From a virus, in the IMG/VR virus record IMGVR_UViG_3300034095_001343, positions 1 to 64,000 of that record: a DNA stretch of 64,000 nucleotides. One strand, 5' to 3'. How positions within the stretch are numbered: position 1 is the first letter of the stretch; the number at the start of each line of letters is the position of its first letter. Shown piece after piece: positions 494 to 62,900 of this stretch. Below the pieces are notes generated by a model. It was not told where the DNA came from. It was given only the letters and a program-made list of their open reading frames with translations, and made no database searches. A program made the position numbers and the translations under genes.

Positions 494-562
494 AGCAGGG
501 ACTGGGGAAACCCAGTTGAACCCAGAAGTAACTGAGCATAGTTACTTGCTGGTATACATTCT

Positions 563-628
563 TACACCTGAGCATGTGTATAAACTGCTTTAATTTGAAC
601 TACACCTGAGTAAGTGTCTAAACTGCTC
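563..628 (+). ncRNA. Two tandem copies of a small H-type pseudoknot-like motif (563-589, 601-628)
   Basis: TACAC-CTG-AGCA-T-GTGTA-TAAAC-TGCT and TACAC-CTG-AGTA-A-GTGTC-TAAAC-TGCTC; ACAC/GTGT stem plus loop-tail pairing; T-tract follows. Confidence 0.5.
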
Positions 629-750
629 ATTTTTTTATTTGTATGTTGGTGATTGTTAGGGTGATACCTTCACACCCTACATATTAAAAAATTCTAGGTA
701 GCTTCATATCTTTGCTCTTTAAAGATATATATAGCTATCCAGTAAGATAT

Positions 751-860
751 TCTCTTTGTACACTCACTCTAAGGTGAGCAGTTGTAATAGAGTATAGATT
801 AAGGTTGGACATACAAGATGTCACGCGTCCCAACATCTATTACAACTAAGTGCAGAGGGA
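751..860 (+). ncRNA. Structured repeat element, copy 1 (three-helix shell with internal cargo)
   Basis: TCTCTTTGTAC/GTGCAGAGGGA, CTCAC/GTGAG and AGTTGTAATAGA/TCTATTACAACT pairings; homologous to 1264-1424. Confidence 0.65.
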
Positions 861-889
861 TTAATTAAAAACTTTAAATACTTAAGCCC

Positions 890-1102
890 ATGTTTATAAC
901 ATTTAAAACCCGAGCACAAGCCAAAAACTATATCAAAAGAAATAATCGTTATAATTATTCTCATAGTGAAGGCTGTGGTTGTTGTTACCAATATGGTAGT
1001 ATCTTTATTGATGGTAATAAAGTAGTTATCAGCAACAGTGGACAACACCAAGGAGCTTGCTATGCATCAGCTACCGTAATAGGTAAAATTAATGGTCGTT
1101 AG
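890..1102 (+). CDS. Hypothetical protein (70 aa, CGCC motif)
   Basis: ORF track; lies between the two structured repeats. Confidence 0.6.
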   Translation: MFITFKTRAQAKNYIKRNNRYNYSHSEGCGCCYQYGSIFIDGNKVVISNSGQHQGACYASATVIGKINGR

Positions 1103-1263
1103 GAGTGATGCCCTTGAATTGGTTCAGACTAAACCAATAGACTAAATTTCATACCCTAGTCAGATATGCCAAGGTTGAGCTTAATCTTTATAGATAAAGA
1201 ATGTCTATTAAATTGTTCTATAGTAACTACATCAAAACTTGCTATAGAACAAGTAAGCTACTA

Positions 1264-1424
1264 CCCTTTGCACACTCACTAGTGAGCAGTTGTAATACAA
1301 AGACTACATAATATTGGCTCAACCAGCTATAGAAAACGTTTACCACATACTGAGGAACAGTAGAAAGTGTGGAGTAGAAGTAAGTTTAGCGACTGAATTA
1401 TGTATTACAACTGAGTGTAGAGGG
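1264..1424 (+). ncRNA. Structured repeat element, copy 2
   Basis: CCCTTTGCAC/GTGTAGAGGG, CTCACTAGTGAG palindrome, CAGTTGTAATACA/TGTATTACAACTG; interior is longer than and different from copy 1. Confidence 0.65.
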
Positions 1425-1481
1425 AATAAAAAACTTAATAACTTTTAAAAATAACAGTAATTAACAATTAATAAATACAAC

Positions 1482-1724
1482 ATGAAACGGACATTTATCA
1501 CACTTATGGTAGCAGCCCTGCCTACCTTTTTTAGCTTATTTGTAGCGAGTCACATTGCTGCTGTCATTCTAATTTTTACCACAATATTGGCGGGTGCCGG
1601 TACCTCACTTATAGACCCAAAAGAGGATAGTTCATTAACTGATAGGGTGCTGTTGGGTTGGTGTGTTCACCTTGTTGGTATTTGCATCTCTATTGCATAC
1701 CACGGCCTACTTAAAAACAACTAA
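1482..1724 (+). CDS. Small membrane protein
   Basis: About 3 hydrophobic segments. Confidence 0.6.
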   Translation: MKRTFITLMVAALPTFFSLFVASHIAAVILIFTTILAGAGTSLIDPKEDSSLTDRVLLGWCVHLVGICISIAYHGLLKNN

Positions 1725-7279: not shown

Positions 7280-7409
7280 AGTCAGGTGGCGGAATTGGTA
7301 GACGCTATGAATAAAGGTTAATAGTAAAGATAACGCGGAGTAACCTTGAAAAACCCGGTGAAAGTCCTGCTCATAAGTTATTATACAGGTTCGAATCCTG
7401 TCCTGACTA
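7280..7409 (+). ncRNA. tRNA-like RNA 1 (Leu-type D arm, canonical T arm, anticodon arm replaced by an insert)
   Basis: Acceptor AGTCAGG/CCTGACT-A; GGCGGAATTGGTAGACGC; ACAGG-TTCGAAT-CCTGT; 130 nt; no canonical 7-nt anticodon loop. Confidence 0.75.
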
Positions 7410-7929: not shown

Positions 7930-8136
7930 AAGAATGAGAAAACTCTCTTACAGAGGACGGATTAGCACCGTTGAAAGAAACTTTGGCTCTTGGGAGTAAT
8001 TACCCAAATGAGATACATGCCCCAAAGTGAACTGTGATGGATCCTGCTCTGTAGTGCACTACAACAGGTAGACAGTAAACTATGTCTAATAAAAACTAGA
8101 AGCATGGTAGAACATGCAAGAGAGTTTCTTATTCTT
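7930..8136 (+). ncRNA. Putative ~205-nt multi-helix structured RNA
   Basis: 19-bp closing stem AAGAATGAGAAA(A)CTCTCTT/AAGAGAGTTTCTTATTCTT enclosing several hairpins; no credible ORF. Confidence 0.55.
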
Positions 8137-12280: not shown

Positions 12281-12685
12281 TAAATCATTTTTTGCTTCTT
12301 CATAAAGTTTTGTTACTTTACTTGAATCATTATTCATATATGCTTGAAGTATATCTTTAATTTTTGATTCATCAAAGGTAGTTGAAGATTTTTTAACTAA
12401 ATTTTGTTCAAAAGCAGCAGCCCTTAGTAATTGTTGTAATGCAAATAAAGTATACATATGAACTTCAAGTTCTTCAAGTTTAATTTCTTCGGGATTACTA
12501 CTGGTAAGAAGTTGTTCAAATTTATTAAACATTGTAGGAACAACAGATTTATCAGTAAAATGCTCTGTTAAAAAAAATAAAATAATTCTTTCTAGACCTA
12601 AAATAAAACCTGTATTAATTTCAAGACCTGTAACATTTTTTGTAAGGTCATATATTTCAATAGGTTGGATGTTTTTATCTGACAT
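12266..12685 (-). CDS. Hypothetical protein
   Basis: ORF; likely start MSDKNIQ at 12685. Confidence 0.6.
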   Translation of the reverse strand: MSDKNIQPIEIYDLTKNVTGLEINTGFILGLERIILFFLTEHFTDKSVVPTMFNKFEQLLTSSNPEEIKLEELEVHMYTLFALQQLLRAAAFEQNLVKKSSTTFDESKIKDILQAYMNNDSSKVTKLYEEAKNDLLSQI

Positions 12686-16779: not shown

Positions 16780-18621
16780 TGGCACAATCAATTCTAGTAA
16801 TCGCTGAGTCCGGCTCAGGTAAATCAACATCCATTAGGAACTTAGATCCTAATGAAACATTAATCATTAACATTGCAAATAAACCTTTGCCTTTTAAAGG
16901 TTGGAAAAGTAAGTATGCACTTTTAGACAAAGAAAATCCTAAAGGAAATCTTTTAAATGTATCTTCTGGTCCTGGTGTATTAAAAGCAATGATGCATGTT
17001 AATGAGAAAATGCCACACATCAAGAACTTAGTTATTGATGATAAAAATTGCTAGTCATCATTAAATTACGTGAATCTGGGAAAGCCTTGTAGAAGGTAAC
17101 CCTGTTCCAAGTGCCATAGAAATATGGTAAAGGATCAACGACTAGTACATACAGTCTTACCAAGTGAAGTTGGAGACAATGAAGTACCAAGAGTGCGTAA
17201 CATAAAGGGAGGTCAACCTCATTAACTTTTATGAAGAGATAGTCTGGACTATAGATATAACTAAAATTAACATTTAAACTTGCAAATCGTCTGAAAAATT
17301 TGTATATTGCAGTATGGCTTACATATATACATTAGAACACCCTGTAAACTCAGAAATAAGATACATAGGTGTAACAATGAGAACGTTGCAATCAAGATTA
17401 TATGATCATTGCTCTTCATATTACCTTAAAAAAGTAAATAATAGAAGGGCAACGTGGATAAAATCATTGAAAAAGCAAAACTTAAAACCAATAATTAAAT
17501 TATTAGATGAAGTACCTGATGACAAAAGGTATGAAACAGAAATGTTTTACATAGAACAATTTAAACAATGGGGATTTGATTTAGTTAATTCTACTAAAGG
17601 TGGATCTGGAGGTACAACATATGTGCGTCCAAAATTTTACCATAAGGAAGAAACAAAGTTAAAAATAAGTAAGGCAAACACAAGATCTCATTCAACAGAA
17701 TGGATTGCTAATGCGGCAAAAGGAGCTTTTAAACCAATTACACAATATACTTTAGATGGTATAATACTAAAAAATTGGGATTCAACAACAACTGCAGCAC
17801 TAGCACTAGGTGATATAAATTATAAAAAAAATATATCATCTTGTTTAAGAGGTTTGCGTAATCATGCATATGGATTTAAATGGGAATATAAAACTATAGA
17901 TCTACAGGATAAAGAGCCTGTAGGGTAACAATATACGTGGCAGTATATGTCAAGCTTTGAGTATTTTGACAAAGCAAATGAGAAAGGGTGGAATTAATCA
18001 TGCCCTTGTAAAATCGCTTAAATTGCGGGGACATCCTAAAGTTCATAATACCAACTTAATATAGTAATATAATTAAGGGCATTGCTAATCACAATGATAT
18101 GGTAAAAAGTTATGAGATAATAATGGACAATCCGCAGCCAAGCTTCCTTGAAAAAGGATGAAGGTTCAGAGACTAAAGAGGCGAATTTTGTTTATAATTA
18201 AATGAAATATGATATAGTCCGGCTATATATGAAAGTATATGGAATCACCGATGATAAATTTACCTCTATTGCTGCAAACCTTGCAGCCGTTGCTAAAGCA
18301 CCAAAAGATCTCAGAGATAATCTCTATGTGTTTTTCTTAACACATTCAGAAGATAGCACTGATATTAATGGTAAACGTAAAATTAAAGCTAAAACTGTTG
18401 GAAAAATGATCGATAATTCCCTTACCTTAGAGGGCTTATTCTCAATTGTTTTATTTGGTAAAGTAATTAAAGAAGAAAATGGTAAAATGAACTATATGTT
18501 TGCAACACAAACAGATGGTGAGACAACCTGTAAATCCCCAATGGGTATGTTTGATGAAGAGATGATCCCGAATGATCTTCAATATGTCAAAGAATGTATC
18601 CAGAAGTATGAAAATGAATAA
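16779..18621 (+). CDS. AAA/Sak4-like P-loop ATPase, spliced: exons 16779-17042, 17938-17989, 18251-18621 (228 aa)
   Basis: Walker A AESGSGKS; joined exons read LVIDD|WQYMSSFEYFDKANEKG|YDKFTSIA; 687 nt in frame. Confidence 0.88.
17280..17309 (+). promoter_or_regulatory. Promoter for the intron-encoded endonuclease
   Basis: TTG-N20-TATATTG, 4 nt upstream of ATG. Confidence 0.5.
17314..17928 (+). CDS. GIY-YIG homing endonuclease with NUMOD1-like C-terminus
   Basis: YIYTL...IRYIGVT; KPITQYTLDG...AYGFKWEY; inside the P9 region of intron 1. Confidence 0.85.
   Translation: MAYIYTLEHPVNSEIRYIGVTMRTLQSRLYDHCSSYYLKKVNNRRATWIKSLKKQNLKPIIKLLDEVPDDKRYETEMFYIEQFKQWGFDLVNSTKGGSGGTTYVRPKFYHKEETKLKISKANTRSHSTEWIANAAKGAFKPITQYTLDGIILKNWDSTTTAALALGDINYKKNISSCLRGLRNHAYGFKWEYKTIDLQDKEPVG
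17990..18250 (+). mobile_element. Group I intron 2 (ORF-less, 261 nt)
   Basis: Exon AAGGGT pairs with IGS GCCCTT; AATCCGCAGCCAA core; GACTA/TAGTC P7; terminal G 18250. Confidence 0.88.
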
Positions 18622-47492: not shown

Positions 47493-47538
47493 AAAGAGCT
47501 GTGCAATTCTGTAAGGATATACTGCACAGCTCTTTTTT
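47493..47538 (+). terminator. Hairpin plus T-tract just upstream of nrdB
   Basis: AAAGAGCTGTGCA...TGCACAGCTCTTTTTT. Confidence 0.6.
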
Positions 47539-47560
47539 ATATAGAAACAATAAAACAAAT

Positions 47561-49522
47561 ATGAAAGCAAACATTTTTGAACCAAGATTAAACATTTTAC
47601 CTTATGAATACCCTCAGTTATTAGCATATAAAGATGCTATTCGTCACTCTTACTGGATTGATACTGAGTATAATTTTACTACAGATATTGATGACTTTAG
47701 AGTAAAAGTTACAGATAGTGAAAGAGAAGTTATTAAAAGAACAATGTTAGCCATTGCGCAGATTGAAGTTAATGTAAAAACTTTCTGGGCTGATATGTAT
47801 AAGCGTATGCCTATCACAGAAATAGGAGATGTAGGTATGACCTTTGCTGAATGTCATGGTGAAGGTACAGAAATACTAACCTTAAAGGGTTGGATAGACT
47901 TTAAGAATATTACTAACAATACAGAAGTTATTCAGTATGATATAGAAACTGATACAATGACATCTGTTTTACCAACTAATATAATAAATAAACCTTACAA
48001 AGGGAAAATGCATAGGATTAAAAACCAAACATACAATGCATTGCTAACTCCTAATCATAACATTATATATAGGACAAGAAGTGGTAATGTTATGAAAAAG
48101 ACCATTAAAGAAATCACTAAATTTAATAGTGATATGAAATTACCTTTTTCAGGAAAACTTCTCCATGATGGAATACAAGAGTTAACACCTATTGAAAGAT
48201 TAAGAATTGCTATACAAGCTGATGGATCTTCTAGATTTTGGAATAAGAATGGTGAGAAGATAAGAAGAGGATTAGAAACAAATAGTCATACTTATGAAAT
48301 TTCAGTTAAAAAAGAGAGAAAGAAACTTAGACTAAAAAATCTTATAATAGAATCAGGATTAACATACAGAGAATTTGAAGTATCAAGACCTGAATATGTA
48401 AAGTATGAAATAGATTTTCCTACTGATTATGATTTAAAACAGTTTAATTGGGTTGATTTATCAGATAAATCTCAGAATTGGTGTAACCATTTTATTGAAG
48501 AATTGATTGAGTGGGATGGAACAAGATTGGAAGGTAAGGGTAATGCTAAGAATTGTCTTATGAAATATTCTACTACTAATAAATTATGTGCTGATAAGGT
48601 TCAAGCTGTAGGTATTTTAGCAGGTTACAGAACTAATATAAATACTAAAACAGATAATAGAAAAGATTCATATAAAGATATTTATACTGTAAGTTTTGTA
48701 AATACAGAAAATTATTCATCAATAACATATACACCTACTATTGAGGATTATGATGGTAATATATACTGTGTAACTGTTCCAACGGGATGCATTGTAACTA
48801 GATATAATAATAAAGTTTTAATTTCAGGAAACTCAGAAGTTCGTCACAAAGATGCATATGCAAGACTGCTTAGAATTCTAGGTTTAGAAGATGAGTTTAA
48901 AACAGTAATTGAAATACCAGCTATTGAAGGTAGAATCAAATACCTAAAGAAGTACTTAGACGGTTCCCGCAGTAAGGATAATAAGATGTATACTAAATCT
49001 GTGCTATTATTTTCTCTATTCATTGAGCACGTTAGTTTGTTTAGTCAGTTCTTAATTATGATGTCTTTCAATAAGGAAAAGAATCTTTTTAAAGGTATCT
49101 CAAATGTTGTTGAGGCTACCAGCAAAGAAGAGGATATTCACGGTAATTTTGGTGTTGAGATTATTAATATCATTAAGTCTGAAAATCCTGAATGGTTTGA
49201 TACAGATTTTGAAGAGTTAATTTACTCCGCCTGTTTGAAAGCTTATGCCGCTGAATGCGGTATATTAGACTGGATTTTTGAAAAGGGTGAGTTAGAGTTT
49301 CTAAATAAGGAAACTATTCAAGAATTTATTAAGAATAGATTTAATAATTCTCTTAGAAAGATTAACATGCAGCCCTTATTTGAAATTAATACCAATTCGT
49401 TAGAATCAACAAAATGGTTTGAGGTAGAGATTACCGCAACTAAAGAGGGTGACTTCTTTTATAAAAAACAAATAGACTATAACAAAAAATCTAAAGCAAT
49501 TACAGAAGATGACTTATTTTAA
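47561..49522 (+). CDS. nrdB: Ribonucleotide reductase class I beta subunit containing an intein
   Basis: IAQIEV, (intein)SEVRH, IEHVSLFSQF, EEDIH, DFFYK; start ATG 47561. Confidence 0.92.
   Translation: MKANIFEPRLNILPYEYPQLLAYKDAIRHSYWIDTEYNFTTDIDDFRVKVTDSEREVIKRTMLAIAQIEVNVKTFWADMYKRMPITEIGDVGMTFAECHGEGTEILTLKGWIDFKNITNNTEVIQYDIETDTMTSVLPTNIINKPYKGKMHRIKNQTYNALLTPNHNIIYRTRSGNVMKKTIKEITKFNSDMKLPFSGKLLHDGIQELTPIERLRIAIQADGSSRFWNKNGEKIRRGLETNSHTYEISVKKERKKLRLKNLIIESGLTYREFEVSRPEYVKYEIDFPTDYDLKQFNWVDLSDKSQNWCNHFIEELIEWDGTRLEGKGNAKNCLMKYSTTNKLCADKVQAVGILAGYRTNINTKTDNRKDSYKDIYTVSFVNTENYSSITYTPTIEDYDGNIYCVTVPTGCIVTRYNNKVLISGNSEVRHKDAYARLLRILGLEDEFKTVIEIPAIEGRIKYLKKYLDGSRSKDNKMYTKSVLLFSLFIEHVSLFSQFLIMMSFNKEKNLFKGISNVVEATSKEEDIHGNFGVEIINIIKSENPEWFDTDFEELIYSACLKAYAAECGILDWIFEKGELEFLNKETIQEFIKNRFNNSLRKINMQPLFEINTNSLESTKWFEVEITATKEGDFFYKKQIDYNKKSKAITEDDLF
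47852..48832 (+). mobile_element. Intein (327 aa) with LAGLIDADG-type endonuclease domain
   Basis: FAE|CHGEGTEILT...TPNH...IYCVTVPTG...ISGN|SEVRH; IAIQADG and LIEWDG motifs. Confidence 0.9.
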
Positions 49523-51209: not shown

Positions 51210-54200
51210 TTATTTAATATAGAAGTTGGTCAGATTTAAGAATTCATTGTATTTCTTAATTGAATATAATATAGGCACTACATCTGCCCAGTTTTTATAA
51301 AGTTTTATTTCTCTCTTTCTAGTTCCTCTTTGATAAACATAATCTGAATCTAAGTAGAAATCTTCTTTACCTTCAACCAGATAAGCAAGCGGTGTCATTA
51401 CACTTAAAGATAATGCTTCACCAAACTCACCCAAGGTTCTTGTTGATGCAATAGGAGATTTAAACATTTGATAGATTTGCTGAGCACCTATAGGAGTAAA
51501 TAGAATAAGTTCCTTATAAGTTCTATCTGCTTGATATCTCATAAAGTTTTCCATTCTCTTTTCAAACTCAGTATCATCATCATCATCTGAGAACATTGCT
51601 GCAAGAATACCATTAAGAGCAACTGTCACCATGATGATTCCAATTTCTCCTAAAGTTCTATAGGCACCAAACAGTTTGTCTCTGGCTCTTTGATCTCTCT
51701 GTGAACCATCTCCAGTATAACCATATTGCTCCATAAAGTTCTCACTATGCTTACCAAATTCAAGTTGAAACGTAGCAAGCTGTTTTGTGCTATAAGCTAA
51801 AAATTTCCAGAAGGCTCTATATCTACCTTCCATCCATCCTAAGTTTTCATCAAAGTATTCTCTACGAAATCTTGCTTTAATTGCTGGAGCAACCCACTTG
51901 TGAAATTGTGCAGCAAGTCTACCAACAGCATATGATTGAATAACCATTCTATCATCCTTAGCATAGTTACCGTGAATTTGTTTATTCACTTCACGGATCT
52001 TATTTCTAAGTTGATATCTAAAGTCATTAGTGTATTTGACTTCTTTAATTACTTTAGGCTTTCCTTCATCATCAACATTCTTTCTATCAAGGGTTACAAT
52101 TGTATCATAACCATCTTTTAGTTTTGCTTCTTTTGTTTCTGAATCAAATTCAAAAGCATCATACATAGAGATGATATCTCCAGTTGCTTTATTCATGATC
52201 ATGGTATCTATAAGGATAGCCATACCAATCTTAGTCTGAACATTGTATTCAGCCATATCTTGAAGTACATAACCAAAGTCAGCAGCTTTTCTAAACCAAG
52301 ACTTGCCAATAGGCTCAGGACCAAATTGACTTTCACGTATGTCAGATTTAGCATCCATCATTCTAAATAAATCAACTAAAGCTTCATACTTACTTGAAGG
52401 CTCTTCAGGATCATAATCTGATTTATTAAAAGGTTTCTTTGCAACAGCTCCCAATCTTACTACAAGATCTGGCAAAGCTCTTTTGTTAAATTCAAACTCA
52501 GCTCTAGCATATGAAGAACCAGCAAAGAATCTTTGACCCAGTGCTTCAATAGTATTGTTAATTCTACCTAAAGCATAGTTATTAAAGTTACCAAATGGGT
52601 TAAATGCCACATAAGATAAAGATGAATATTCCATCAAACCGTCAGTAACTTTTTCTAAGAAGCCTTTAGTGATTCTATCATTGTCATAGTATACCATTGA
52701 CATCCACTTCTTAGCTCTCTTAACTACGTTACTTTCAGCTCCACCTTTTTTACCTTTTGGTATGAACTTACCTTTTACCCACTTTCCTAATGTTACTCCA
52801 GGATCTGCAGGTTGGTAACTACGTTGTTCAAGAACTTTAATGAAAGCTTTAAAGGTGTCTTCAACTGTAGACATCACTTCATAATGTTCAGCCATTGAAC
52901 TGAATCTCATGAGGGCCGTACCCATATCTTTATTAATCTCACCTTTAGAAGGTCTTGCTTGAATAGTTGCAAGTCTTCCTTTTAAAATAGGCATTTGATT
53001 ATCATAGGCATCTCTAGTTACAAAACCTTTCTTTCTGTTATTTTCTAATGCAGTAATCTCTGCATTAATTGCAGCAAGCTCTTCATCTGTTCTTGCTCTT
53101 CCTGTATAGAAGATAGGAAGCTGATCAATAAGATTACCTTCTTCATCTAATACAATACCTCTCTGTTCTGCAGTTTCTGATACAAGATTGTTAACACTTC
53201 TTGTAGCCTTAGACCAAAGCTTACCTACAATATTAGGTTTAGCTTTTATATCTTGGAATAATTTACCTTTTACTACGGGCACATTACCTAACATTTGAGA
53301 TCTATATCCCATAGGTAATTTGCCAAGTAATTGATTTTCATAGTAATTTACAAATGCTAAATAAAACTCTTTTTGAGTTTGACCTAATGCATCTGAAGGA
53401 TTCATAATTTTTTCATACTTTTCACTTACCATTCTCTCACCAGTACGCAGATTATAATCATTTGCAATACGGTTTTGTGGTTTAACAGCATGGAACACAG
53501 ACTCTCTTACAATTGCTCCAGTAAAATTACCATTCTGATCTTTTTTAGCATATGTATATTCAACTTCATTAAAATACTTAGCTAAGTAAACTTGATAAGC
53601 TCTGTCAGATACACCAGCCTTTCTTCTCCATACAGGTTTGCCATTAACCGGAACATAGTATTGGAACTTAGCTCTTTCAGTTTTAAACTCATCAGTGTAT
53701 TTATGGAAGTCCCCATCCATAAGTTTATCATCTAGACCCACTCTTTCAGCAGCCCAGAATGCAGCATACTCAGACTTAGCCTTAGCAAGTTTAATGTTAA
53801 ACTCTAAATCTTCTTTTTTAGCAGTTGCTGCTTCACTTACATCTCTATATTCTAAGGCATTACCATTTTCATCATAGAGTTTATCTCTAAGCTCCTGTTG
53901 CTTTTTATAGTATTGTCTACCTAATCTTTGAACATATCTTCCGTTAAATTCACCATCATCGTCAAACTCAAGCATGAAGTCATACATTTCTTGAGTATTC
54001 TTATTAGGAGATAGTTTCTGAAGTCTTGATGCTAGACCTGCAATAGTTCTGTTTCTTGTTTCTACATTATCCAAAAGCTCTTGCTTTTTAGTCTTGTAGA
54101 TTTTATCCATTACTGCAAGAATAGTATCTCTTGAAGTTGCTAGATCACCAGTACCCAGTTCCATATAATCTATATCACGGGCATGCTTCATTAAATCATT

Positions 54201-56939
54201 TAAAACATCATCGGTTAAGTCATCTCTTGTTGACCAATTCTTAATCTGTGCTTTTACATAATTTGTAATAGCTTCATTGATAAGACCTTCTTGCTTTGAG
54301 TTACTAACACCCAAATTATTCAATTGAGTTTGTAACTGTAAGATTAAAGATTTCTGTGTAGCATTGATACCTTCAAGATCTTTTACAGAATATAATCCTT
54401 CAAAAGTTTTAATGAATCTATTGAAGTTAAGAACGTATGTAATGTATTCTGATTTGTCAAAGTTATCTACATTGTTTACATAGTCTGTAAAGTTTTTAAT
54501 CTGCTTGAAAGCATCTCTTAATAACTCTGTAAATAGTGCAGCACGTGCCTTAGGACCTTCAGCCATTGCTAAGCTAATGGCAGATAGAGCATTAAGAATA
54601 TTTTCTTCAGTTTGCTCTCTAGTTCTATCAATATAGATAGCACTTTTAATCTGCTCCATTGCTTTAAGCTTTGTTGTCAAAGCCATTCTATAGTTTTCTA
54701 AAGCTTGTGTAATAACTTCATACTCAGTATATGGATCAGCAAAGTCTGTATCTTCTGGCATCTTTTCAGCATCTGTTAATTCTGAATCCCAGTTAACAGC
54801 ATTGTCTAATGCATCATCAATGTTTTTCTCTAAATCTTCTAATGAAATTGAGTCAACATTTTTTGGAACAAGAAGATCAACATATAAACTATTTTGACTT
54901 GCAGGATGAGCCACCCATTCATCAGATCTAAACTCACCAGTGAATTCTTGCTGAGCATCTTTACCTTTGATACCAACTTGAATGTGGAAAGTAGAAGCAC
55001 CCATTTCACTCATGTCTACTTCATAACCCATATTTTCAAGCATCCTTCTATACATGTTTACTTGAATACCCTGTTGAGCTCTTGTAGAAAGACTTTCAAT
55101 CCCTGCCTTTTTAAGATCACTATTTTCTCCTAGTTTATATTCTTGGTCATACTTAAGTTTACCTTGAAGTCCTACTTTAGTTTTAGCTTGCTCACTTAAC
55201 ACCATATCTCTTACAGAGTTCTTGCTTGTCTTAAGATCAACAATTCTAAGTTTACCATCTGGCAAAACAACAAGAATGTCAATTGATCCGGCAGTCTTTG
55301 ACTTCTGGTCATAAACAACAACTTGAGGAACGGCAACACCGCCACCTCTAGTAATCTCTCTAAGATTTTCTTGTAATTGTAAATAAGCTTTCTCAGCTTG
55401 TTCTCTATTAAGAACTTTCATTTGAGAAAAGACTTCATCTAATTGTTTATCTGAAGTTAATCCTTGCAATAACTTATCAAAGTCATTACCCAGATCAATG
55501 TTCAGTTTCTTATTAAACATATCTTCTTCAGAAAGCTTTCCTTTAATTCTTTCTGTAGTAGAACTGAAAGTCTCAGTTGTATCTAATAAGTTATAGTATA
55601 CATGATTCTCTTCATTAAGAACAACAATTGGTCCTTCAAATCCGGCAGCCATTGAACCAACTTCTTCTTTTGTAGTTTGTGCTTGATGGAATAGTCTATT
55701 GATTATTTCAGCTTGAATTGCATTTGATTGTCTTGTAGCATAATCTACAGTAGACTGAAGTTCAGGAGTTAAAGAAAATCTAATCTTAGCATCTGCTCTA
55801 GCCGCTGCGTTAAACTGAATACCAGAAGTATTTAACAACTTAGCAATATCAGATAAAGTAGTTGTAGGTTTAATGTCTTGAAGATTAATTCTCACAACTT
55901 CAGAAGGTGTTTGAGATGGTTGAACAACTTCAGAACTTCTTAAAGAAGATATATTAATACCTGTAATATATTTATGAAGATTGTTTATAATATCAGCAAA
56001 CCAATCCAAAAACTCTTTTACTCTTTCTTTAAAGGTCTTGGTTGGATTTTCTTCATATTCTTTTTTGAAGTGTCTTGTCAAAGCTTGTGTAACAAGTTCA
56101 AGATCTCTGTGTCTTTGATTAAAACCACGTTTCTCACTATAAGCATCTTCAATTTGCTGACTTAATACTGGAAACATAGTCTTTGCTTCTGATAGTAATG
56201 AATCAAACAAAGCTTTATTATCTACAAACAAAGCATCTGTAAATGGGTGAAGTATCTCTTCAATAGCTGTCTCATCTGTAACACGTCCTCTAATTAAAAC
56301 AACTTTATTTGATAGAGGATTGAAATAAGAATTTACTTTTTCAAAAGGTACATTAGCTTTTTGAAATTCTGAAAGACTATTATAATAAGCTTGTGCCTCA
56401 GCAACTGAAACTAACTCTACTTCAACATTAGGAAACATTCTCATTAAATGAGTAACAACGTGTCTACTTCTAGTTTGATCCCAACCTCTTGTTGATTGCA
56501 TCATATCTTTAGAAGTAAATACATTCTCATCTACAGTAATTTTAACTAAATTTGCAGTAGGTTGAAAATTAACAGCCTTCTCAGGAATGTTATTAATATC
56601 AAGATATCTTTTTACTTTGTTCAGATTACTTTGCAAAACTTGAGCATCATAAGCTCTAGTTTGTCTGTTAGAGTTATTTATATAATATAAATTACCAATC
56701 TTGATAATTAAGTTCTTCCTAGATAAATTACCCAGAATAGCTTCTGCAAAATTTCTTTGCTGAATGTTAAAAGCAATTTTCTTATCCTTTAAGAATTGTT
56801 TTGCTTGTCCAACTGTAGGAAAAGCTTCACTATTATTTACATTTTGCCAAGACGTAATTATTCCATCAACCTGTATATTGCTACTGAAAGCACCTAATAA
56901 GTTTTTATATTCTTGGGTATTTCTATTAAAACATGCCAT
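51210..56939 (-). CDS. Giant virion (likely ejected) protein with PD-(D/E)XK nuclease-like and degenerate zincin-like domains
   Basis: 1909 aa; AGSIDIL...IVDLKTSK...Q..MY; TAIEEILHPF; next to the vRNAP gene. Confidence 0.7.
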   Translation of the reverse strand: MACFNRNTQEYKNLLGAFSSNIQVDGIITSWQNVNNSEAFPTVGQAKQFLKDKKIAFNIQQRNFAEAILGNLSRKNLIIKIGNLYYINNSNRQTRAYDAQVLQSNLNKVKRYLDINNIPEKAVNFQPTANLVKITVDENVFTSKDMMQSTRGWDQTRSRHVVTHLMRMFPNVEVELVSVAEAQAYYNSLSEFQKANVPFEKVNSYFNPLSNKVVLIRGRVTDETAIEEILHPFTDALFVDNKALFDSLLSEAKTMFPVLSQQIEDAYSEKRGFNQRHRDLELVTQALTRHFKKEYEENPTKTFKERVKEFLDWFADIINNLHKYITGINISSLRSSEVVQPSQTPSEVVRINLQDIKPTTTLSDIAKLLNTSGIQFNAAARADAKIRFSLTPELQSTVDYATRQSNAIQAEIINRLFHQAQTTKEEVGSMAAGFEGPIVVLNEENHVYYNLLDTTETFSSTTERIKGKLSEEDMFNKKLNIDLGNDFDKLLQGLTSDKQLDEVFSQMKVLNREQAEKAYLQLQENLREITRGGGVAVPQVVVYDQKSKTAGSIDILVVLPDGKLRIVDLKTSKNSVRDMVLSEQAKTKVGLQGKLKYDQEYKLGENSDLKKAGIESLSTRAQQGIQVNMYRRMLENMGYEVDMSEMGASTFHIQVGIKGKDAQQEFTGEFRSDEWVAHPASQNSLYVDLLVPKNVDSISLEDLEKNIDDALDNAVNWDSELTDAEKMPEDTDFADPYTEYEVITQALENYRMALTTKLKAMEQIKSAIYIDRTREQTEENILNALSAISLAMAEGPKARAALFTELLRDAFKQIKNFTDYVNNVDNFDKSEYITYVLNFNRFIKTFEGLYSVKDLEGINATQKSLILQLQTQLNNLGVSNSKQEGLINEAITNYVKAQIKNWSTRDDLTDDVLNDLMKHARDIDYMELGTGDLATSRDTILAVMDKIYKTKKQELLDNVETRNRTIAGLASRLQKLSPNKNTQEMYDFMLEFDDDGEFNGRYVQRLGRQYYKKQQELRDKLYDENGNALEYRDVSEAATAKKEDLEFNIKLAKAKSEYAAFWAAERVGLDDKLMDGDFHKYTDEFKTERAKFQYYVPVNGKPVWRRKAGVSDRAYQVYLAKYFNEVEYTYAKKDQNGNFTGAIVRESVFHAVKPQNRIANDYNLRTGERMVSEKYEKIMNPSDALGQTQKEFYLAFVNYYENQLLGKLPMGYRSQMLGNVPVVKGKLFQDIKAKPNIVGKLWSKATRSVNNLVSETAEQRGIVLDEEGNLIDQLPIFYTGRARTDEELAAINAEITALENNRKKGFVTRDAYDNQMPILKGRLATIQARPSKGEINKDMGTALMRFSSMAEHYEVMSTVEDTFKAFIKVLEQRSYQPADPGVTLGKWVKGKFIPKGKKGGAESNVVKRAKKWMSMVYYDNDRITKGFLEKVTDGLMEYSSLSYVAFNPFGNFNNYALGRINNTIEALGQRFFAGSSYARAEFEFNKRALPDLVVRLGAVAKKPFNKSDYDPEEPSSKYEALVDLFRMMDAKSDIRESQFGPEPIGKSWFRKAADFGYVLQDMAEYNVQTKIGMAILIDTMIMNKATGDIISMYDAFEFDSETKEAKLKDGYDTIVTLDRKNVDDEGKPKVIKEVKYTNDFRYQLRNKIREVNKQIHGNYAKDDRMVIQSYAVGRLAAQFHKWVAPAIKARFRREYFDENLGWMEGRYRAFWKFLAYSTKQLATFQLEFGKHSENFMEQYGYTGDGSQRDQRARDKLFGAYRTLGEIGIIMVTVALNGILAAMFSDDDDDTEFEKRMENFMRYQADRTYKELILFTPIGAQQIYQMFKSPIASTRTLGEFGEALSLSVMTPLAYLVEGKEDFYLDSDYVYQRGTRKREIKLYKNWADVVPILYSIKKYNEFLNLTNFYIK

Positions 56940-56942
56940 ATG

Positions 56943-59900
56943 TCAAAGATAACAATTATTAAAGTGATCTAAAAATTCTTGTTCATTTGTGAACTCACTA
57001 TTTTCAAACAACTCAATAAAATCTTCAAGGTCTTGCACCTTAAATTTCATATCTGGATTGTCTCTGTGAGCTTTAAGTTTGTTTCTATTATCTAATGCCG
57101 CCTGACTAAATGGATCATCAATATTTGAATCCCACCAAGTAGAAAGCTCTGGATATTTATTTTCACCAGCATCATTATCAGCAAGTAGATTATTGAAGAA
57201 TGAGTTAGCTGAGATATCAATTGCTCCACTAAGATCAATTAAATCTTCACCACCAGTTTCATCAACTTCAGGTTCTACAAGATCTTGATTTTCAATTGAT
57301 TCTGCAGACTCACTTACTTTACTAATATTCTCACCATTAACTTGGATACCTTTTTCAGTAGCTACTACACTAGAACCTGCTGAAATTTTTACACCTTTTT
57401 CCAAATCAATGTTATCTAATACTGAGTCAATATCAATTGAATCAAAAGCTGCATCTAAAGGATCTGAAGAGTTTACACTATTTACAAAGCTTCTTAATTT
57501 TTTTGTAGTAGGTCTTTCTCCAAACATAAATCCAATTGGATTCTGAGCAGTTGAACCTTTTATGTCTACTTCAACGTATTCAGCATAACTACCAACAGCC
57601 TTATTATTAAAATTGATTAAATTTTCTGCTGGGAATAAGCTTTGTGTTTTTGCAAGTACATAGTATCTATACTCAGCTTTATATTCTGATCCAACATTTT
57701 GTCTAACAACCATTGGGAATTCTACTTCAGTGTGATAGTCAGAACCTTTCTTAAGATTGATATTCTTAAAACCCGCCTTAATTAATTCTTCTTTGTTTTT
57801 ATCAAAAGTATCCGCCAATTGCTTAGTTAATTTAGAAACAGGTGGAGTATTTCTTACTGAAGAAACATTGTTTGTTTTATCAAGTCTAGAAATACCAGCA
57901 TATAAATCTACAACTAATCTTCGTACCAAGCCTGAAGCATTTACGTGAACAGGAGCTCTTAAGATAGCAGGATCTGCAACTTTTGCAGCTTTCTTTTCTT
58001 CTGCAGACTTCTTAGCCTTAGGATCAATGTTATATTGAAGATCTTGTAAAAGTTTTGCTTTTACATATTCAAATACAACCGGACTATTCTTTTTAAAGTC
58101 TGCAAGTTCTGGTGCTGAAATCAAATCTTTTGCAAAAATAACTTGCTTTCTTTCTGCAATCATATTTGTTAACTGCTCTACTTGCTCATCAAAGATTGTA
58201 ATAAAGTCTCCTGCTTCAGCATTTGTGTAGTAAGAAGACTCTATTCTATTCATATCCTTTTTGAAGAACAAGCCAAATGCATTATCCAAACCTCTAACTG
58301 AGCTATTACCAACACTACCTTGTTTTGCAACGTTATCTCCAAATACATAAATGGCTTCAGGATTAGATGTTGCAAGTGCTTTAGTAAATACTTTAGGCTC
58401 AATAGTAATACCTTTTGTTTCTGGAGCATAGATTGCAGCTCTTACTTTTTTAATCACATAAGCATTAGGAGCTGAAGTTAGATAACCTTGCATGAAATCA
58501 ATAACCAAATCATCCAGCTGCATACCAAATGTTGACTGAAATACAGTATCATTAGGTCTTTCTATTGCTGCTTGTACAGTATCAATATGAGATAAGTAAC
58601 CATCAAGAGCAATTGGAGCTACAGATTCTACAATAGATTTATAACCATACTGAAGACCATCTTTAACCATCATATAATGAACAAGTGTCTTTGCATCAGA
58701 TCTTGTTAAAGGATTTGCATACAAAGTCATAAAGCCATTTTGGATATCTAGCTTTTGTGAATCATTATATCTTAAGAATGTATTTGCTCCCGCTAAATTT
58801 AAACCAGTCTTATTACCTTTCAAATTTGCTTTCTCTGTGATGATAAAAGACTTTAAGAAATAATTATTAGCACCTTCTTCAGTTGCTCTAAGTCTGTCTA
58901 ATACTGCGGTTATATTCTCAACACCATCTTGATTATAAATTAATCCATTAGTAAGAGTAGCTACAGACTGTGCGTTATTAACTAAACCATTATGCATGTA
59001 AGCCTTAATAGTTAAGTATGATAAAAAGTCTCTAGCAATTTTAGTTTTAGTTTTATCTCTTAGTTCATAAGGTAGATTGTTTACAGTACTTTGGTAAACT
59101 ACTTCATCAGTTACTCTTCTAAATAGAGGGCTTGCTGAAAGAACCACTTTAGGTAATAAGAAATTAGTAAACTCCTGGAATCTTTCAAGATAACCAGCTT
59201 GCCATGTTTCACCTTTAAATATAGGTCTAGCATCAATCATTGGTCTATTAACACCTAATGCTAAGAACTCTTTGTCAGATAAGTTAAGACCTAACTTTTC
59301 TGTTGCTTCATTTCTCTTATCAATTGCTTCAAGACCTTGACCTAAACCATTGGTAAGATTTATGATGTCTCCCATATATTTTGTAGTGTTAGATAAACTA
59401 GCAGCATTTAAGAATTGTTCTAAGATTGAAATTTCTTCAATCACCTGCATTTTTGTAATCTCACCATTTTCTCTAAGTTCAGCCATATCAGCTTTAGTAG
59501 CAGTTGCTTTAATTAAAGGAGTGTCAATTGCTTCCATCAAAGAATTTTGAGTAACAGAAGTTCTTATCTTTTCTTCTTTCTTCTCAAGAAATGCTGTTTG
59601 TAATGCTATAATTCTTTCTTCTACAATACTTCTTGCATATACTTTTTTATCTGCAGAAGCATTAGCTTCCATAAAATAAGCTTGTCTAATAACAGGGTGG
59701 TTAACCAAAAGAACTGAAGTCTTTACAGGAACGCCTAAAGCTATTAGATTAGCTACAATAGAAAGAGCATTGATATTAAGACCAAGCTTAGCCAAAAGTC
59801 TTTCTTTAGCGTTATCCGTTGCTGCAGTAATTAAAGCAGATAAGATATACTGAGTTCTTTGACCTTGACTACCATCTTCATTTAACTCAAATGTATTTCT

Positions 59901-62900
59901 AAAGTTGCTGAATGTAACTCCTCCAAATTCAATTTGAGGCAATACTTCTTCACCGCCAACTTTAGTGCTGGCAATTTTTACATCATACTCTTGAAGAAGA
60001 TTTAAGTATAGGTTAGGTAATACAACCGCACCAATTGATCTAGAACCTTCTTTGTTGTTAGCAAACATTCTAAGCTTGCCGTATAGGTTGTCTACATCAA
60101 TACCTTCTTCTTCAGACAAAGCGGCCCATTCAGGAAGTTCTGTCTTAAGTTCATCCCAAAGATCCTTTAAAACTTCTATATCTGCAGCCTCATAAGAAAT
60201 TGCCACAGCTGTTCTTTGTTTACCGTTTTTATCCAACGCAGGCTTACCAGTATTTACAGTAGTTGTTTTACCATTCTTATCTAGGAATAAAGGTTTTCTT
60301 TCTGTAACATGGTCATTACCCATAAGAGCAACTTTGTAATCAAGAATATCATTGTTGATTGCTGCAGCATATGGTTCATGTCCAAATTTTTTCTTATAAG
60401 TCTTATATTGAGCTAAAGTAACAGGCATTCCTAATACTAAAAGAGCATTTATTGAATCTTCTTTTAAACCACGACTTTGAGCAGTTAATAAATCTGAATT
60501 TGTAATGCTTATATTCTTACCCGTACCCCTTCCATTATATTTATATAATGCTTCTCCATATATAGAATCTGAATCTTTTACTTTTTCGTTTACATATCTA
60601 ACATAATCTAAATATTTATTATCTTCTGTTTTAGCTTTACCATATTCAAAGAACTCTCCATTCTTTTCATAAAACTCTTTAAACTGCATGTAAACCTTAT
60701 CAATATCAAAGTCAGCTCCTGATATCTCAATAAGTTCTCTTGCAAACACACCAGAAGAACCATAAGCGGCAGGCATAAAGTCTATCCACTTAACGTTATA
60801 AGTTGAATGGTTATCTTGTGAAGGAATACGTACAGCAAACATTTTACCTACAACATCAGGAATAGATTTTCCTTTAAGTTGTAATTCTTTCATCACTTCT
60901 TTGTGATGAGGTGGTAATAACATCTCACCATACTTTTGTCCTGTTGCTTTTCCTTTTGAGTCATACTCTTTCATGTTATGTCTCAAACGGTCAATAATAA
61001 CAACACCGGCACCTTTAGATTTTTTTACTGCATCTTTAAGACCTGCAATATTTTCATCATTACCAGGATAAGAACCTTCATCAATATTAAATAGAATGTC
61101 AGGCTTACTAGCCATAGCTTCATATTGTGCTTCAGTAATAATCTCATGTTTATCTGGCATACCGTTTTCATCTACAGAAAGAACTCTTCTGTAAACTCTT
61201 ATACCATAGTCAGAAACCAATGATACTGTTGCACCAGGTACCTTCTCATTAAATACACTCTTACTAAAATAGCTCATAAATAAATTCAAGAACTTATCAT
61301 AAGTAAGAGGGTTGTTAAGATTATACTTTTGATTTCCTGATTCATCAAGTGAGAATAGTTCCATCAAATGACTTGAAGAACCTGTAGATGCAAGACTGGC
61401 TTCAGCATATCTTAAGTATGTATAAAGATCTGCAGTAATAGCATTTTCTTTAATACTCTTCTGAAGTTCATCCATTGCGTAGTCTACATCAAAAGAGAAT
61501 ACTAAATTTCTCTTGTTGATATAATTCAAGTTACCTCTATCTCTAGTTGCTTTGTGATAAGCAGCTCTTACCTCACCTAATGTTAATTTCTCACCATTGA
61601 TGATTACTTCTGTTGAATCATTTTGTTCTGAAGTAACCAAGGTCTTAACCTGAGTAGGATCTGTTATAACAGTTTTGTTAGATGGGTTGATTACCTGCAA
61701 TCCTAAATAATTAGCATCAAGAGTAACAGATTGATCTTGCCCTAATGGAGTTGTTGTTCCAGTAACACCATGAATGTTAGATACATTCTTTTGCATCATC
61801 TTTAAGGCTGATCTTGGAGCAGCTACTGAAACTGTATCATTTTCTTTTTCAAATGCTTCAAGCTTAACTCTTAAGTTATGTAAAGCAAGTTTGTTAGGTT
61901 TAGGAATAGTGTAGTTACCTTCAGAATCTTTCAATGAAGTAAACTGTGGTAATAATGGGAATGCAGACATCTTAACAAATGTTTTACCATCTGCATATAC
62001 AAGCTTCTGAGAGTTGAGCATTTCTTGTCTCTTAGCATATCCTGTAGATTCTTCTGTCCCAAAAATATCCTCAGCACTAATATCCTCACCTCTTTCAATT
62101 CTATCAAACAATTCTGCTTGAGCCGGAGTAAGTTTACCAAAACCATATTGGAAGTTACGGAAAGCTTTAGTAGTCATCCATAACTGAGCATCCGCATTCT
62201 TAACTTCACCTACATTGTATGTTGCATTAACAATAGGTTCTGTTAATTCAAACAATGAGATTTCTTGTAATGGTTTAAAAATACCATACTCTGGTGCAGC
62301 TACTGTACTTGCAGCACTATAGTAAGATGCAGATTGTGCTTTTGCTCTTTTAATTTCATCAACAGCATCTTTCAAACTATAAGCACTATCACCTAACAAA
62401 ATCTGATTGATAGCTGTGGTATTAATATAATCATTAAAGAAGATCTGCTTTAAGTTGTATTCAGTATCTTCAGGAATAATGTTTAGTAATCTAGCAGATT
62501 TTTGGGCATCTCCAGTTACTGCACCACCTGCTGTCTGAATACCATTGGTTAAGAAAGTTCCTAACCCACCTTGTGAATCAACAACTTTCTTGTTAGTTTT
62601 TGAACCAACAAGTTCATCTAGTGTAATATTAAACTCTGCAAATTCTTGGTCCATTCTATTTTGCAAGAATGCTTTCAACTCTGATTCCTTTATACCAAGC
62701 TTTTGGATAGCTTCAGCAAAAGTTAATCCTGCAAACTCTGGAGAACGTGCAGCTTCGGTTAGTTTATTTACGTAACCTTCTACTTCAAATCCACCAACAA
62801 GACCTGCAACTTGTTCCATTAAATTAGCTTCTCCAGCTTCCATCAAATCATACATGTACATAGGTTTCTTACCTTGTAAGAAATTTTGCTCATTGCTTGA

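Follow-up and report, generated by a model that had tools for sequence, protein, structure and literature searches.

Pseudoknot-free RNA elements upstream of small phage genes as probable relatives of a phage-only twister lineage

What kind of phage element keeps its outer structure constant while enclosing entirely different sequences? The question is raised by the window analyzed here, the first 64 kb (~30% G+C) of the 114,929-bp IMG/VR virus record IMGVR_UViG_3300034095_001343, in which two plus-strand elements, A (751-860) and B (1264-1424), share a three-way-junction shell of four helices each: an outer helix (CYCUU/GAGGG), a 5-bp helix (UGYAC/GUGYA), a small side hairpin, and a long stem (CAGUUGUAAUA and its complement) that encloses the interior. 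A sequence-only reading had described both shells, which we found where it placed them and with exactly its consensus; its unrelated interiors of ~44 and ~101 nt proved to be 44 nt in A and 101 nt in B, with no mutual similarity. That reading proposed guide or decoy presentation, hairpin promoters for a virion RNA polymerase, or cassette recombination as possible functions. Our comparisons point elsewhere: A and B are probably stripped-down relatives of a phage twister ribozyme lineage and probably persist as structural elements that do not cut. Named after the twister helices (P1, P2, P4, P5, with L4 the loop of P4), their parts are as follows.

751-756, plus strand: A, 5' strand of the outer helix (UCUCUU), pairing with GAGGGA 855-860 in the place of twister P1 and the UAA cleavage site; read directly and from the minimum-free-energy (MFE) fold.
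757-761, plus strand: A, 5' strand of the P2 equivalent (UGUAC), pairing with GUGCA 850-854, U759.G852 included; the helix covaries in relatives.
763-778, plus strand: A, P4-equivalent hairpin CUCAC/GUGAG (763-767 with 774-778), loop UCUAAG, without the L4 consensus UUCCCAAGG.
779-848, plus strand: A, P5-equivalent long stem (780-791 with 836-847), found as inverted repeat I16 and in the MFE fold; encloses the 44-nt interior 792-835.
850-860, plus strand: A, 3' strand of P2 (GUGCA), G855-A856 and GGG 857-859, the G-A-GGG being paired in a nested helix with 751-756.
1264-1273, plus strand: B, 5' strand of the outer helix (CCCUU, 1264-1268, pairing with 1420-1424) and 5' strand of P2 (UGCAC, 1269-1273, pairing with GUGUA 1415-1419).
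1275-1286, plus strand: B, P4-equivalent hairpin CUCA/UGAG (1275-1278 with 1283-1286), loop CUAG, without the L4 consensus.
1287-1413, plus strand: B, P5-equivalent stem (1287-1299 with 1401-1413), found as inverted repeat I10; encloses the 101-nt variable interior.
1415-1424, plus strand: B, 3' strand of P2 (GUGUA, with G1270.U1418), then G1420-A1421-GGG, pairing with 1264-1268.

The 18-nt 3' consensus of the shell occurs twice in the window against 0.12 occurrences expected, which excludes chance, and A and B are the only copies in the whole 114,929-bp genome. Pairing is indeed preserved through G.U wobbles on the plus strand, as had been claimed (U759.G852 in A, G1270.U1418 in B), and it is this strand that folds far better than shuffled sequences: z = -5.3 for A and -4.3 for B, with only -2.6 and -1.9 for the minus strand.

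Relatives are numerous among uncultivated viruses. A 19-nt pattern from the 3' half of the shell has exact matches at no fewer than 119 IMG/VR loci (at least 119, against ~2 expected by chance), and a shell 20-mer was found in just six small contigs of metagenome-assembled genomes among 185,579 prokaryote genomes. With the majority form of the family as query, none of 50,697 cultured-phage records matched, and a search of the full-text literature for the conserved 3' motif returned only chance matches in primers. The 96 distinct elements that we extracted have interiors of 22-220 nt that share no motif; only one or two copies are present in each complete genome (124-127 kb), and minimal relatives of 63-68 nt have a P5 stem capped by a short loop and no cargo at all. 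Judged by these searches, the lineage is large, restricted to phages, chiefly from freshwater metagenomes, and uncatalogued.

The identity of the family emerges from the majority form. From 5' to 3', it consists of a short helix, UAA, UGCA(C), a short CAUAA-like junction, a 5-bp hairpin with loop UUCCCAAGG, a long variable stem, a single A, (G)UGCA, G-A, GGG, and the 3' strand of the short helix. Compared block by block, the Rfam twister-P1 consensus has identical blocks in identical order, and the same order is found in canonical twisters (UAA-UGCA...UGCA-GAKGG) of the same phage contigs, at L203 3715-3779 and L157 855-923 (related loci are cited by L numbers). The outer strands then map to P1, UAA to the cleavage site, UGCA/UGCA to P2, the hairpin to P4/L4, the CCC of the L4 loop with the 3' GGG to pseudoknot T2, and the variable stem to the optional P5. 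Twisters need P1, P2 and P4 and can do without P0, P3 and P5, and two pseudoknots gather conserved L1 and L4 nucleotides at the U-A step beside P1 (PMC5408937); additional domains at P5 have been reported in natural twisters (PMC5052635). The majority form shares with the twister clan (Rfam CL00120) P1, the U-AA cleavage site, P2, a P4 with UCCCAAG loop, G-A-GGG, T2 and a variable P5, with covariation, but differs from the Rfam seeds in having no P3, a long P5, a candidate T1 pseudoknot that reads CC x GG instead of GC x GC, and perhaps five P2 pairs. By its architecture, the majority form is a type-P1 twister lineage without P3 and with a long optional P5.

Two observations on this form stand apart from that assignment. 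Both canonical twisters score below threshold in Rfam, the one in L157 lying ~110 nt upstream of its element and the one in L203 ~2.7 kb downstream of the element at 752-974. In L191 1690-1955 (minus strand), L074 8245-8570, L102, L193, L144, L204 and others, L4 is interrupted by a conserved two-hairpin insertion of 64-191 nt, which starts with GUGGAUAUAAAGACUUCUUAG and ends with UUAAUCAG directly before CUCCCAAGG, at a site that is not among the optional twister stems listed in a review (PMC5408937). What looked like a 5'-truncated type of element is the majority form split by this insertion, its 5' part lying 80-205 nt upstream.

Covariation bears the architecture out. A covariance model, R1, was built from 31 majority-form sequences, and its 97 matches gave an alignment, A3, in which the nested helices were aligned to the model. 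In A3, 96.9% of the cells are paired and both sides change at 20 of the 26 pairs, values that none of 500 shuffles reaches; the changes on both sides fall in P1, P2, P4, P5 and T2. All five pairs of P4 vary and covary, the hairpin equivalent to 763-778 of A, and P2 occurs in the versions UGCGU/ACGCA, UGUGU/ACACA and UGUAC/GUACA. Because neither T2 nor P1 was part of R1, these two are independent tests: T2 changes from C:G to A:U at two positions, in four sequences each (e.g., in L179, L213 and L006), and P1 is made of AU (40), UA (17) and GC (12) pairs. P1 was also tested separately on 83 pairs of flanks, with a result of 2.70 contiguous pairs, compared to 1.35 +/- 0.11 with shuffled flanks. 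The unpaired UAA (94-96 of 97 sequences) and G-A (95-97 of 97) are nearly invariant. Covariation among homologues from related phages, the check that the sequence-only reading had proposed, was thus found, and together with the G.U pairs it upholds that reading's view of a family acting as single-stranded RNA of the plus strand.

How do the window copies relate to this ribozyme? R1, which contains only majority-form members, matches the window at 754-866 (47.7 bits, E 4.8e-10) and at 1266-1431 (46.9 bits, E 8.2e-10) and has no further match in the 115-kb genome. Both copies keep the P2 sequence, the P4 helix, the base of P5, the single-A junction and the G-A-GGG strand; by comparison with the Rfam twister-P1 consensus (...GAGGG...), G855 of A is the equivalent of the twister general-base G, and A856 is its neighbor. 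The scissile UAA, however, is absent: C754-U755-U756 in A and C1266-U1267-U1268 in B lie directly 5' of P2 and are paired with G-A-G. The G-A-GGG that follows P2 (G855-A856-G857-859; G1420-A1421-G1422-1424) is present but base-paired, not in a loop, and the P4 helix is itself present but its loops, UCUAAG and CUAG, lack the L4 consensus UCCCAAG(C/G). Neither T1 nor T2 exists in A or B, as L4 has no CCC or GG and the GGG is nested with the 5' CYC. The sequence-only reading had held that a match to a described motif would count against it: the family does turn out to be twister-like, but the window copies fail the defining features of a twister. Among 2,625 natural twisters, imperfections are broadly tolerated except in catalytic residues and pseudoknots (PMC11662667), and because A1, T1 and T2 are all missing, no twister-type cleavage is predicted for A or B.

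Such copies form a nested variant of the family, in which CYC-UU (or CCC-AA in a sister subclass) takes the place of P1 and UAA and pairs with G-A-GGG, and in which L4 has no CCC/AAGG and is often just a CC/GG mini-hairpin beside an orphaned GAG. The variant is rare: 19 loci fit one diagnostic pattern, and the side hairpin of the window type occurs in only four IMG/VR and 12 metagenome contigs, which yield nine distinct elements, each with its own interior. Its outer helix pairs at 4.84 of 7 positions, compared to 4.35 +/- 0.13 with shuffled partners (maximum 4.79 in 2000 shuffles), and occurs in compensatory versions such as UUUCUU/GAGAAA and CCAU/AUGG. Cells of G.U type outnumber those of A.C type by 45 to 14, an excess that points to RNA of the plus strand. 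The nested form is maintained, as seen from R1 scores of ~47 bits, outer-helix pairing with compensation, the G.U excess, and constant shells around differing interiors.

Taken together, we consider it reasonably probable that A and B are plus-strand, pseudoknot-free derivatives of the phage twister lineage that do not cleave and that lie in the 5' untranslated regions (UTRs) of small early genes. The shell would correspond to twister P2, P4, the base of P5 and the G-A-GGG strand, and the supposed cargo to the free distal portion of P5. Self-cleavage of the majority form would occur between U and AA just 5' of P2, leaving a folded ribozyme with a 5'-OH at the head of the downstream message. 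In A and B, UAA, including the general-acid A1, appears to have given way to CYCUU, which pairs with GAGGG, and the P4 loop is without CCC and AAGG; because of these two changes, neither a pseudoknot nor the active site is predicted to form. Both elements would then persist as a stable rod-plus-branch in the 5' UTR. Their retained role may be structural, protecting or insulating the 5' region of the downstream mRNA, or else host RNase III may cut the long near-perfect duplex and so take over from self-cleavage at this site of the genome. Together, the outer helix, P2 and P5 add up to a duplex of ~25-30 bp, which is almost perfect in relatives without the side hairpin (e.g., L350).

A bolder reading, which we consider less likely than not, is that the nested variant is a selected, natural conversion of a double-pseudoknot ribozyme into a fully nested fold, in which T2 became a CCC:GGG extension of P2 and T1 a small CC:GG hairpin beside the orphaned GAG, with an RNase III cut or a protective 5' fold as the outcome. 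The subclass with A-A at this position might even embody a catalytic topology that is new and free of pseudoknots. Other phages, too, place structured elements between their small early genes: the RNase III hairpins of T7-type phages and the mobile promoter/stem-loop (PeSL) cassettes of T4-type phages process or stabilize messages and mark the boundaries of shuffled modules. A and B resemble these in position but have no sequence relationship to them, and an RNase III role is suggested by the long duplex.

Several results weigh against a twister origin or limit how far it can be pressed. Rfam detected no twister at gathering threshold in the whole window, and no twister-P1, -P3, -P5 or RF02681 match at E <= 10 within window positions 500-1600; on 19 related loci it recognized nothing on the elements, minimal relatives included, and reported only neighboring tRNAs and the two sub-threshold canonical twisters. 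Because the models are silent even at E <= 10 and even for minimal relatives, the family assignment leans on the block-by-block comparison and on covariation; the missing P3, the inserted P5 and a putative T1 of CC x GG are likely reasons for this silence. The T1 candidates themselves (CC after P2, GG at the end of L4) do not vary in the 97 sequences, and the first T1 C covaries with the nucleotide that precedes the 3' strand of P2 (C:G to U:A, 6 of 97), so that it may instead form a fifth P2 pair. Moreover, P2 and the first nine P5 pairs are 90-100% conserved in sequence while P4 varies freely: this conservation exceeds what pairing needs and is unexplained by a purely structural role, and it hints at a partner that reads the sequence or at homogenization by recombination. 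Since the loci were gathered with a fixed 3' pattern, conservation of the 3' strand is partly a product of the collection, and the nested sample is small (~25-43 sequences, nine of them window-like), with a modest covariation signal.

Could A and B nevertheless still cut themselves, through a rearranged, pseudoknot-free core, with the CCC strand of T2 now at the 5' end and T1 reduced to a small hairpin? The G-A after P2 is kept, the would-be T1 partners (CC...GG) form a small hairpin beside a conserved unpaired GAG in many nested variants, the sister subclass places A-A opposite G-A (CCC-AA-UGCAC), and for hammerheads permuted forms have been described in which nested and pseudoknotted helices trade places (PMC10085705). 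Yet in both copies the A1 position is a U paired with the G-A, which turns the loop of the scissile bond into a continuous helix, and the conserved L4 adenines are lost; high-throughput tests found twisters intolerant of losing a pseudoknot or catalytic residue (PMC11662667), and directed searches found no non-circular twister permutations (PMC10085705). We regard continued self-cleavage as very unlikely. Nor do A and B fit twister-sister (RF02681), a pseudoknot-free twister relative built on a multi-helix junction, with a conserved P4 terminal loop and cleavage at a C-A step in the P1-P2 internal loop (PMC6154101): they share the multi-helix junction and the lack of pseudoknots, but their P4 loops (UCUAAG, CUAG) are unconserved, their P1-P2 loop is closed by pairs, and RF02681 gives no match at E <= 10. 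Hepatitis delta virus-like, hammerhead, hairpin, pistol and hatchet ribozymes, three-way-junction riboswitches and flavivirus-type exonuclease-resistant RNAs were also considered and set aside, as their helix order or core nucleotides do not fit and Rfam was silent. If catalysis is gone, A and B might simply be decaying, functionless remnants of twisters once active at these positions, which the loss of catalytic features, the truncation of the module 3' of B relative to that in relatives, and the existence of degenerate relatives (L186 11418-11528 and L276 3686-3873, both without GGG, and L360, with an unpaired outer helix) would all suit. We judge this improbable, however: the shell is identical or nearly so in the nine window-like elements despite unrelated interiors, the outer helix has compensatory changes and outperforms shuffled partners, and A and B each retain four intact helices that fold far better than shuffles.

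A stronger competitor, still an unlikely one, is that the shell acts mainly as DNA, as a portable homology block through which recombination in co-infecting phages shuffles interiors and small early genes, RNA structure being secondary; a parallel would be the mobile regulatory cassettes found in T4-type phages. Interiors sharing 83-98% identity turn up at loci whose flanks are otherwise unrelated and whose 5' shell types differ (L071/L175, L140/L193 and L005/L126; also L360/L215), and L217 resembles a deletion recombinant between the two copies that L074 carries in tandem. The L035 and L317 elements, whose interiors differ, match the 34-nt 5' half of B at 100% identity, and sequence conservation of the shell is far above pairing needs. 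A solo 3' half (UUAUAACUGAGUGCAGAGGG) lies in L094 at ~12440-12465, at the stop codon of a small open reading frame (ORF) that follows a complete element, and looks like the footprint of a cassette-like recombination. Of the recombination sites that the sequence-only reading envisaged, exchange by homology through the shell is plausible, but there is no sign of sites of the integron type: A and B resemble attC sites in being imperfect inverted repeats with a variable center and a folded single strand, but their arms are CAGTTGTAA / TTACAACTG rather than RYYYAAC/GTTRRRY, and the RNA pseudoknot of the relatives and the G.U pairs of one strand argue for RNA. No integrase turned up among the neighboring ORF clusters. 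Because the helices covary and G.U pairs occur on one strand only, selection acts on RNA; the most conserved positions of the majority form are the unpaired nucleotides of its catalytic site, and recombination may be a consequence of conservation, not its function. A role as DNA block is, in any case, compatible with the derivation from twisters that we prefer. As for a scaffold that presents guides or decoys, or hairpin promoters of the N4 type, conserved shells around unrelated interiors and an early-gene-like region at the genome end, together with giant minus-strand ORFs, might suggest either, but we find both hardly credible. The shell corresponds to the twister P2/P4/P5 junction and the interior to distal P5, minimal relatives dispense with an interior altogether, and the interiors elsewhere, 22-220 nt long, have no common motif; a search with the A and B interiors yielded no significant match or complement elsewhere in the phage genome, and no significant match in ~350 fetched loci. 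The virion RNA polymerase promoter of N4 is a short DNA hairpin with a 5-7 bp stem and a 3-nt loop, reiterated before early genes, whereas A and B, two copies in 115 kb, have side-hairpin loops of 6 and 4 nt; complete genomes hold only one or two copies, and relatives have an RNA pseudoknot supported by covariation.

The surroundings of A and B agree with the sequence-only description of an A-rich leader and a small gene after each element:

861-1102, plus strand: A-rich leader 861-889, without a Shine-Dalgarno sequence, followed by a 70-aa ORF (890-1102) without a family match.
1425-1724, plus strand: A-rich leader 1425-1481, followed by an 80-aa ORF (1482-1724) without a family match.

Leaders without Shine-Dalgarno sequences suggest a host among the Bacteroidota; a consensus scan of the A and B flanks found no Bacteroidota-type or sigma-70 promoter and no intrinsic terminator. 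The arrangement is common in the family: 92 of 116 related elements precede an ORF on the same strand, at a median distance of 84 nt with a sharp cutoff near 30 nt at the lower end, and others precede a tRNA, a hammerhead-like sequence or another copy. One hammerhead-like core (CUGAUGAG ... CGAAAC) lies directly 3' of a nested-form element in L172 (~2738-2780). No single protein family accompanies the elements, the largest cluster of neighboring proteins occurring near only 20 of 114. Proteins with DUF2828 and DUF7788 (PHROG 850, 'RNA-binding protein') are encoded 3' of elements in L105 (838-2301) and L203 (1333-2739); they are confined to a few contigs, and the association is not general. A link to Y RNA and Ro that these proteins brought to mind was dismissed on the same count of 20 of 114. 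Homologues of the window gene at 155-493 occur in L094, L123, L062 and L074, with a complete twister-like element 3' of each, and because these homologues precede complete elements, the nested form of the window occupies the site of the full form in relatives.

Two further modules recur beside the elements. 3' of several of them is a module of an A-run, CUUAAUAAC, a hairpin with loop UUCCCAAG, GAGGGCAC and a U-run able to pair with the A-run (L035 12641-12680, L191 ~1660-1700 on the minus strand, L364, L221, L222, L151), which resembles a twister-like unit in miniature. The B leader matches this module over its first ~20 nt (window 1426-1445); in relatives the module runs on into the UUCCCAAG-loop hairpin, a continuation absent in the window. 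Upstream of A, at 563-589 and 601-627, the window has a tandem motif of ~27 nt, ACAC-CUGAGCAU-GUGU, then AAACUGCU, related copies of which immediately precede twister-like elements in L140, L181, L123, L189, L120 and L094. Its stems covary (ACAC/GUGU, UAC/GUA, AUC/GAU, GUAAC/GUUAC), as does a pairing of the loop with 3' sequence (GAGCA/UGCUC versus AAGCA/UGCUU), a pattern indicative of either an RNA with an H-type pseudoknot or a promoter-proximal signal, frequently found together with the ribozyme.

Elsewhere in the window, a G+C-rich stretch upstream of the first gene (45-150) has GGGG/CCCC hairpins and no Rfam match; it is 68-76% identical in nucleotide sequence to stretches of L094, L123, L074 and L062, which there are internal to the contig, not terminal, and it may be a structured leader. 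At 7280-7409 a 130-nt Rfam tRNA match, not called by ARAGORN, may be an intron-containing tRNA. A freshwater-1 RNA (RF02979, 78.4 bits, above the gathering score), a motif for which we know of no function, lies at 8033-8094, and a group I intron (RF00028, 56.1 bits) at 17955-18241 between the ORFs 17314-17928 and 18202-18621. The ribonucleotide reductase small subunit (47501-49522) has a weak match to an intein-splicing domain inserted in its N-terminal half. Two giant ORFs occupy 51210-63998 of the minus strand, one of 1909 aa and one of >2349 aa, the latter with a DUF7831 match only. The DNA polymerase shares ~33% identity with the enzymes of Cellulophaga phage phi14:2 and several Vibrio phages.

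To our knowledge, no biological role has been established for twister ribozymes in bacteria and phages, and because this phage-only lineage is invisible to Rfam models, annotation pipelines miss it. At the same genomic position, related phages have a complete twister, a twister with a two-hairpin insertion in L4, or a pseudoknot-free form without the catalytic adenine, a series that allows one to ask what the phage needs: cleavage, a folded 5' structure, or a partner that reads P2 and P5. A and B would be an example of a ribozyme scaffold retained after apparent loss of catalysis, and their identical shells may double as recombination handles in mosaic early regions. Should the nested form prove to be a selected conversion of the ribozyme, the job of the twister in these phages would be achievable without catalysis.

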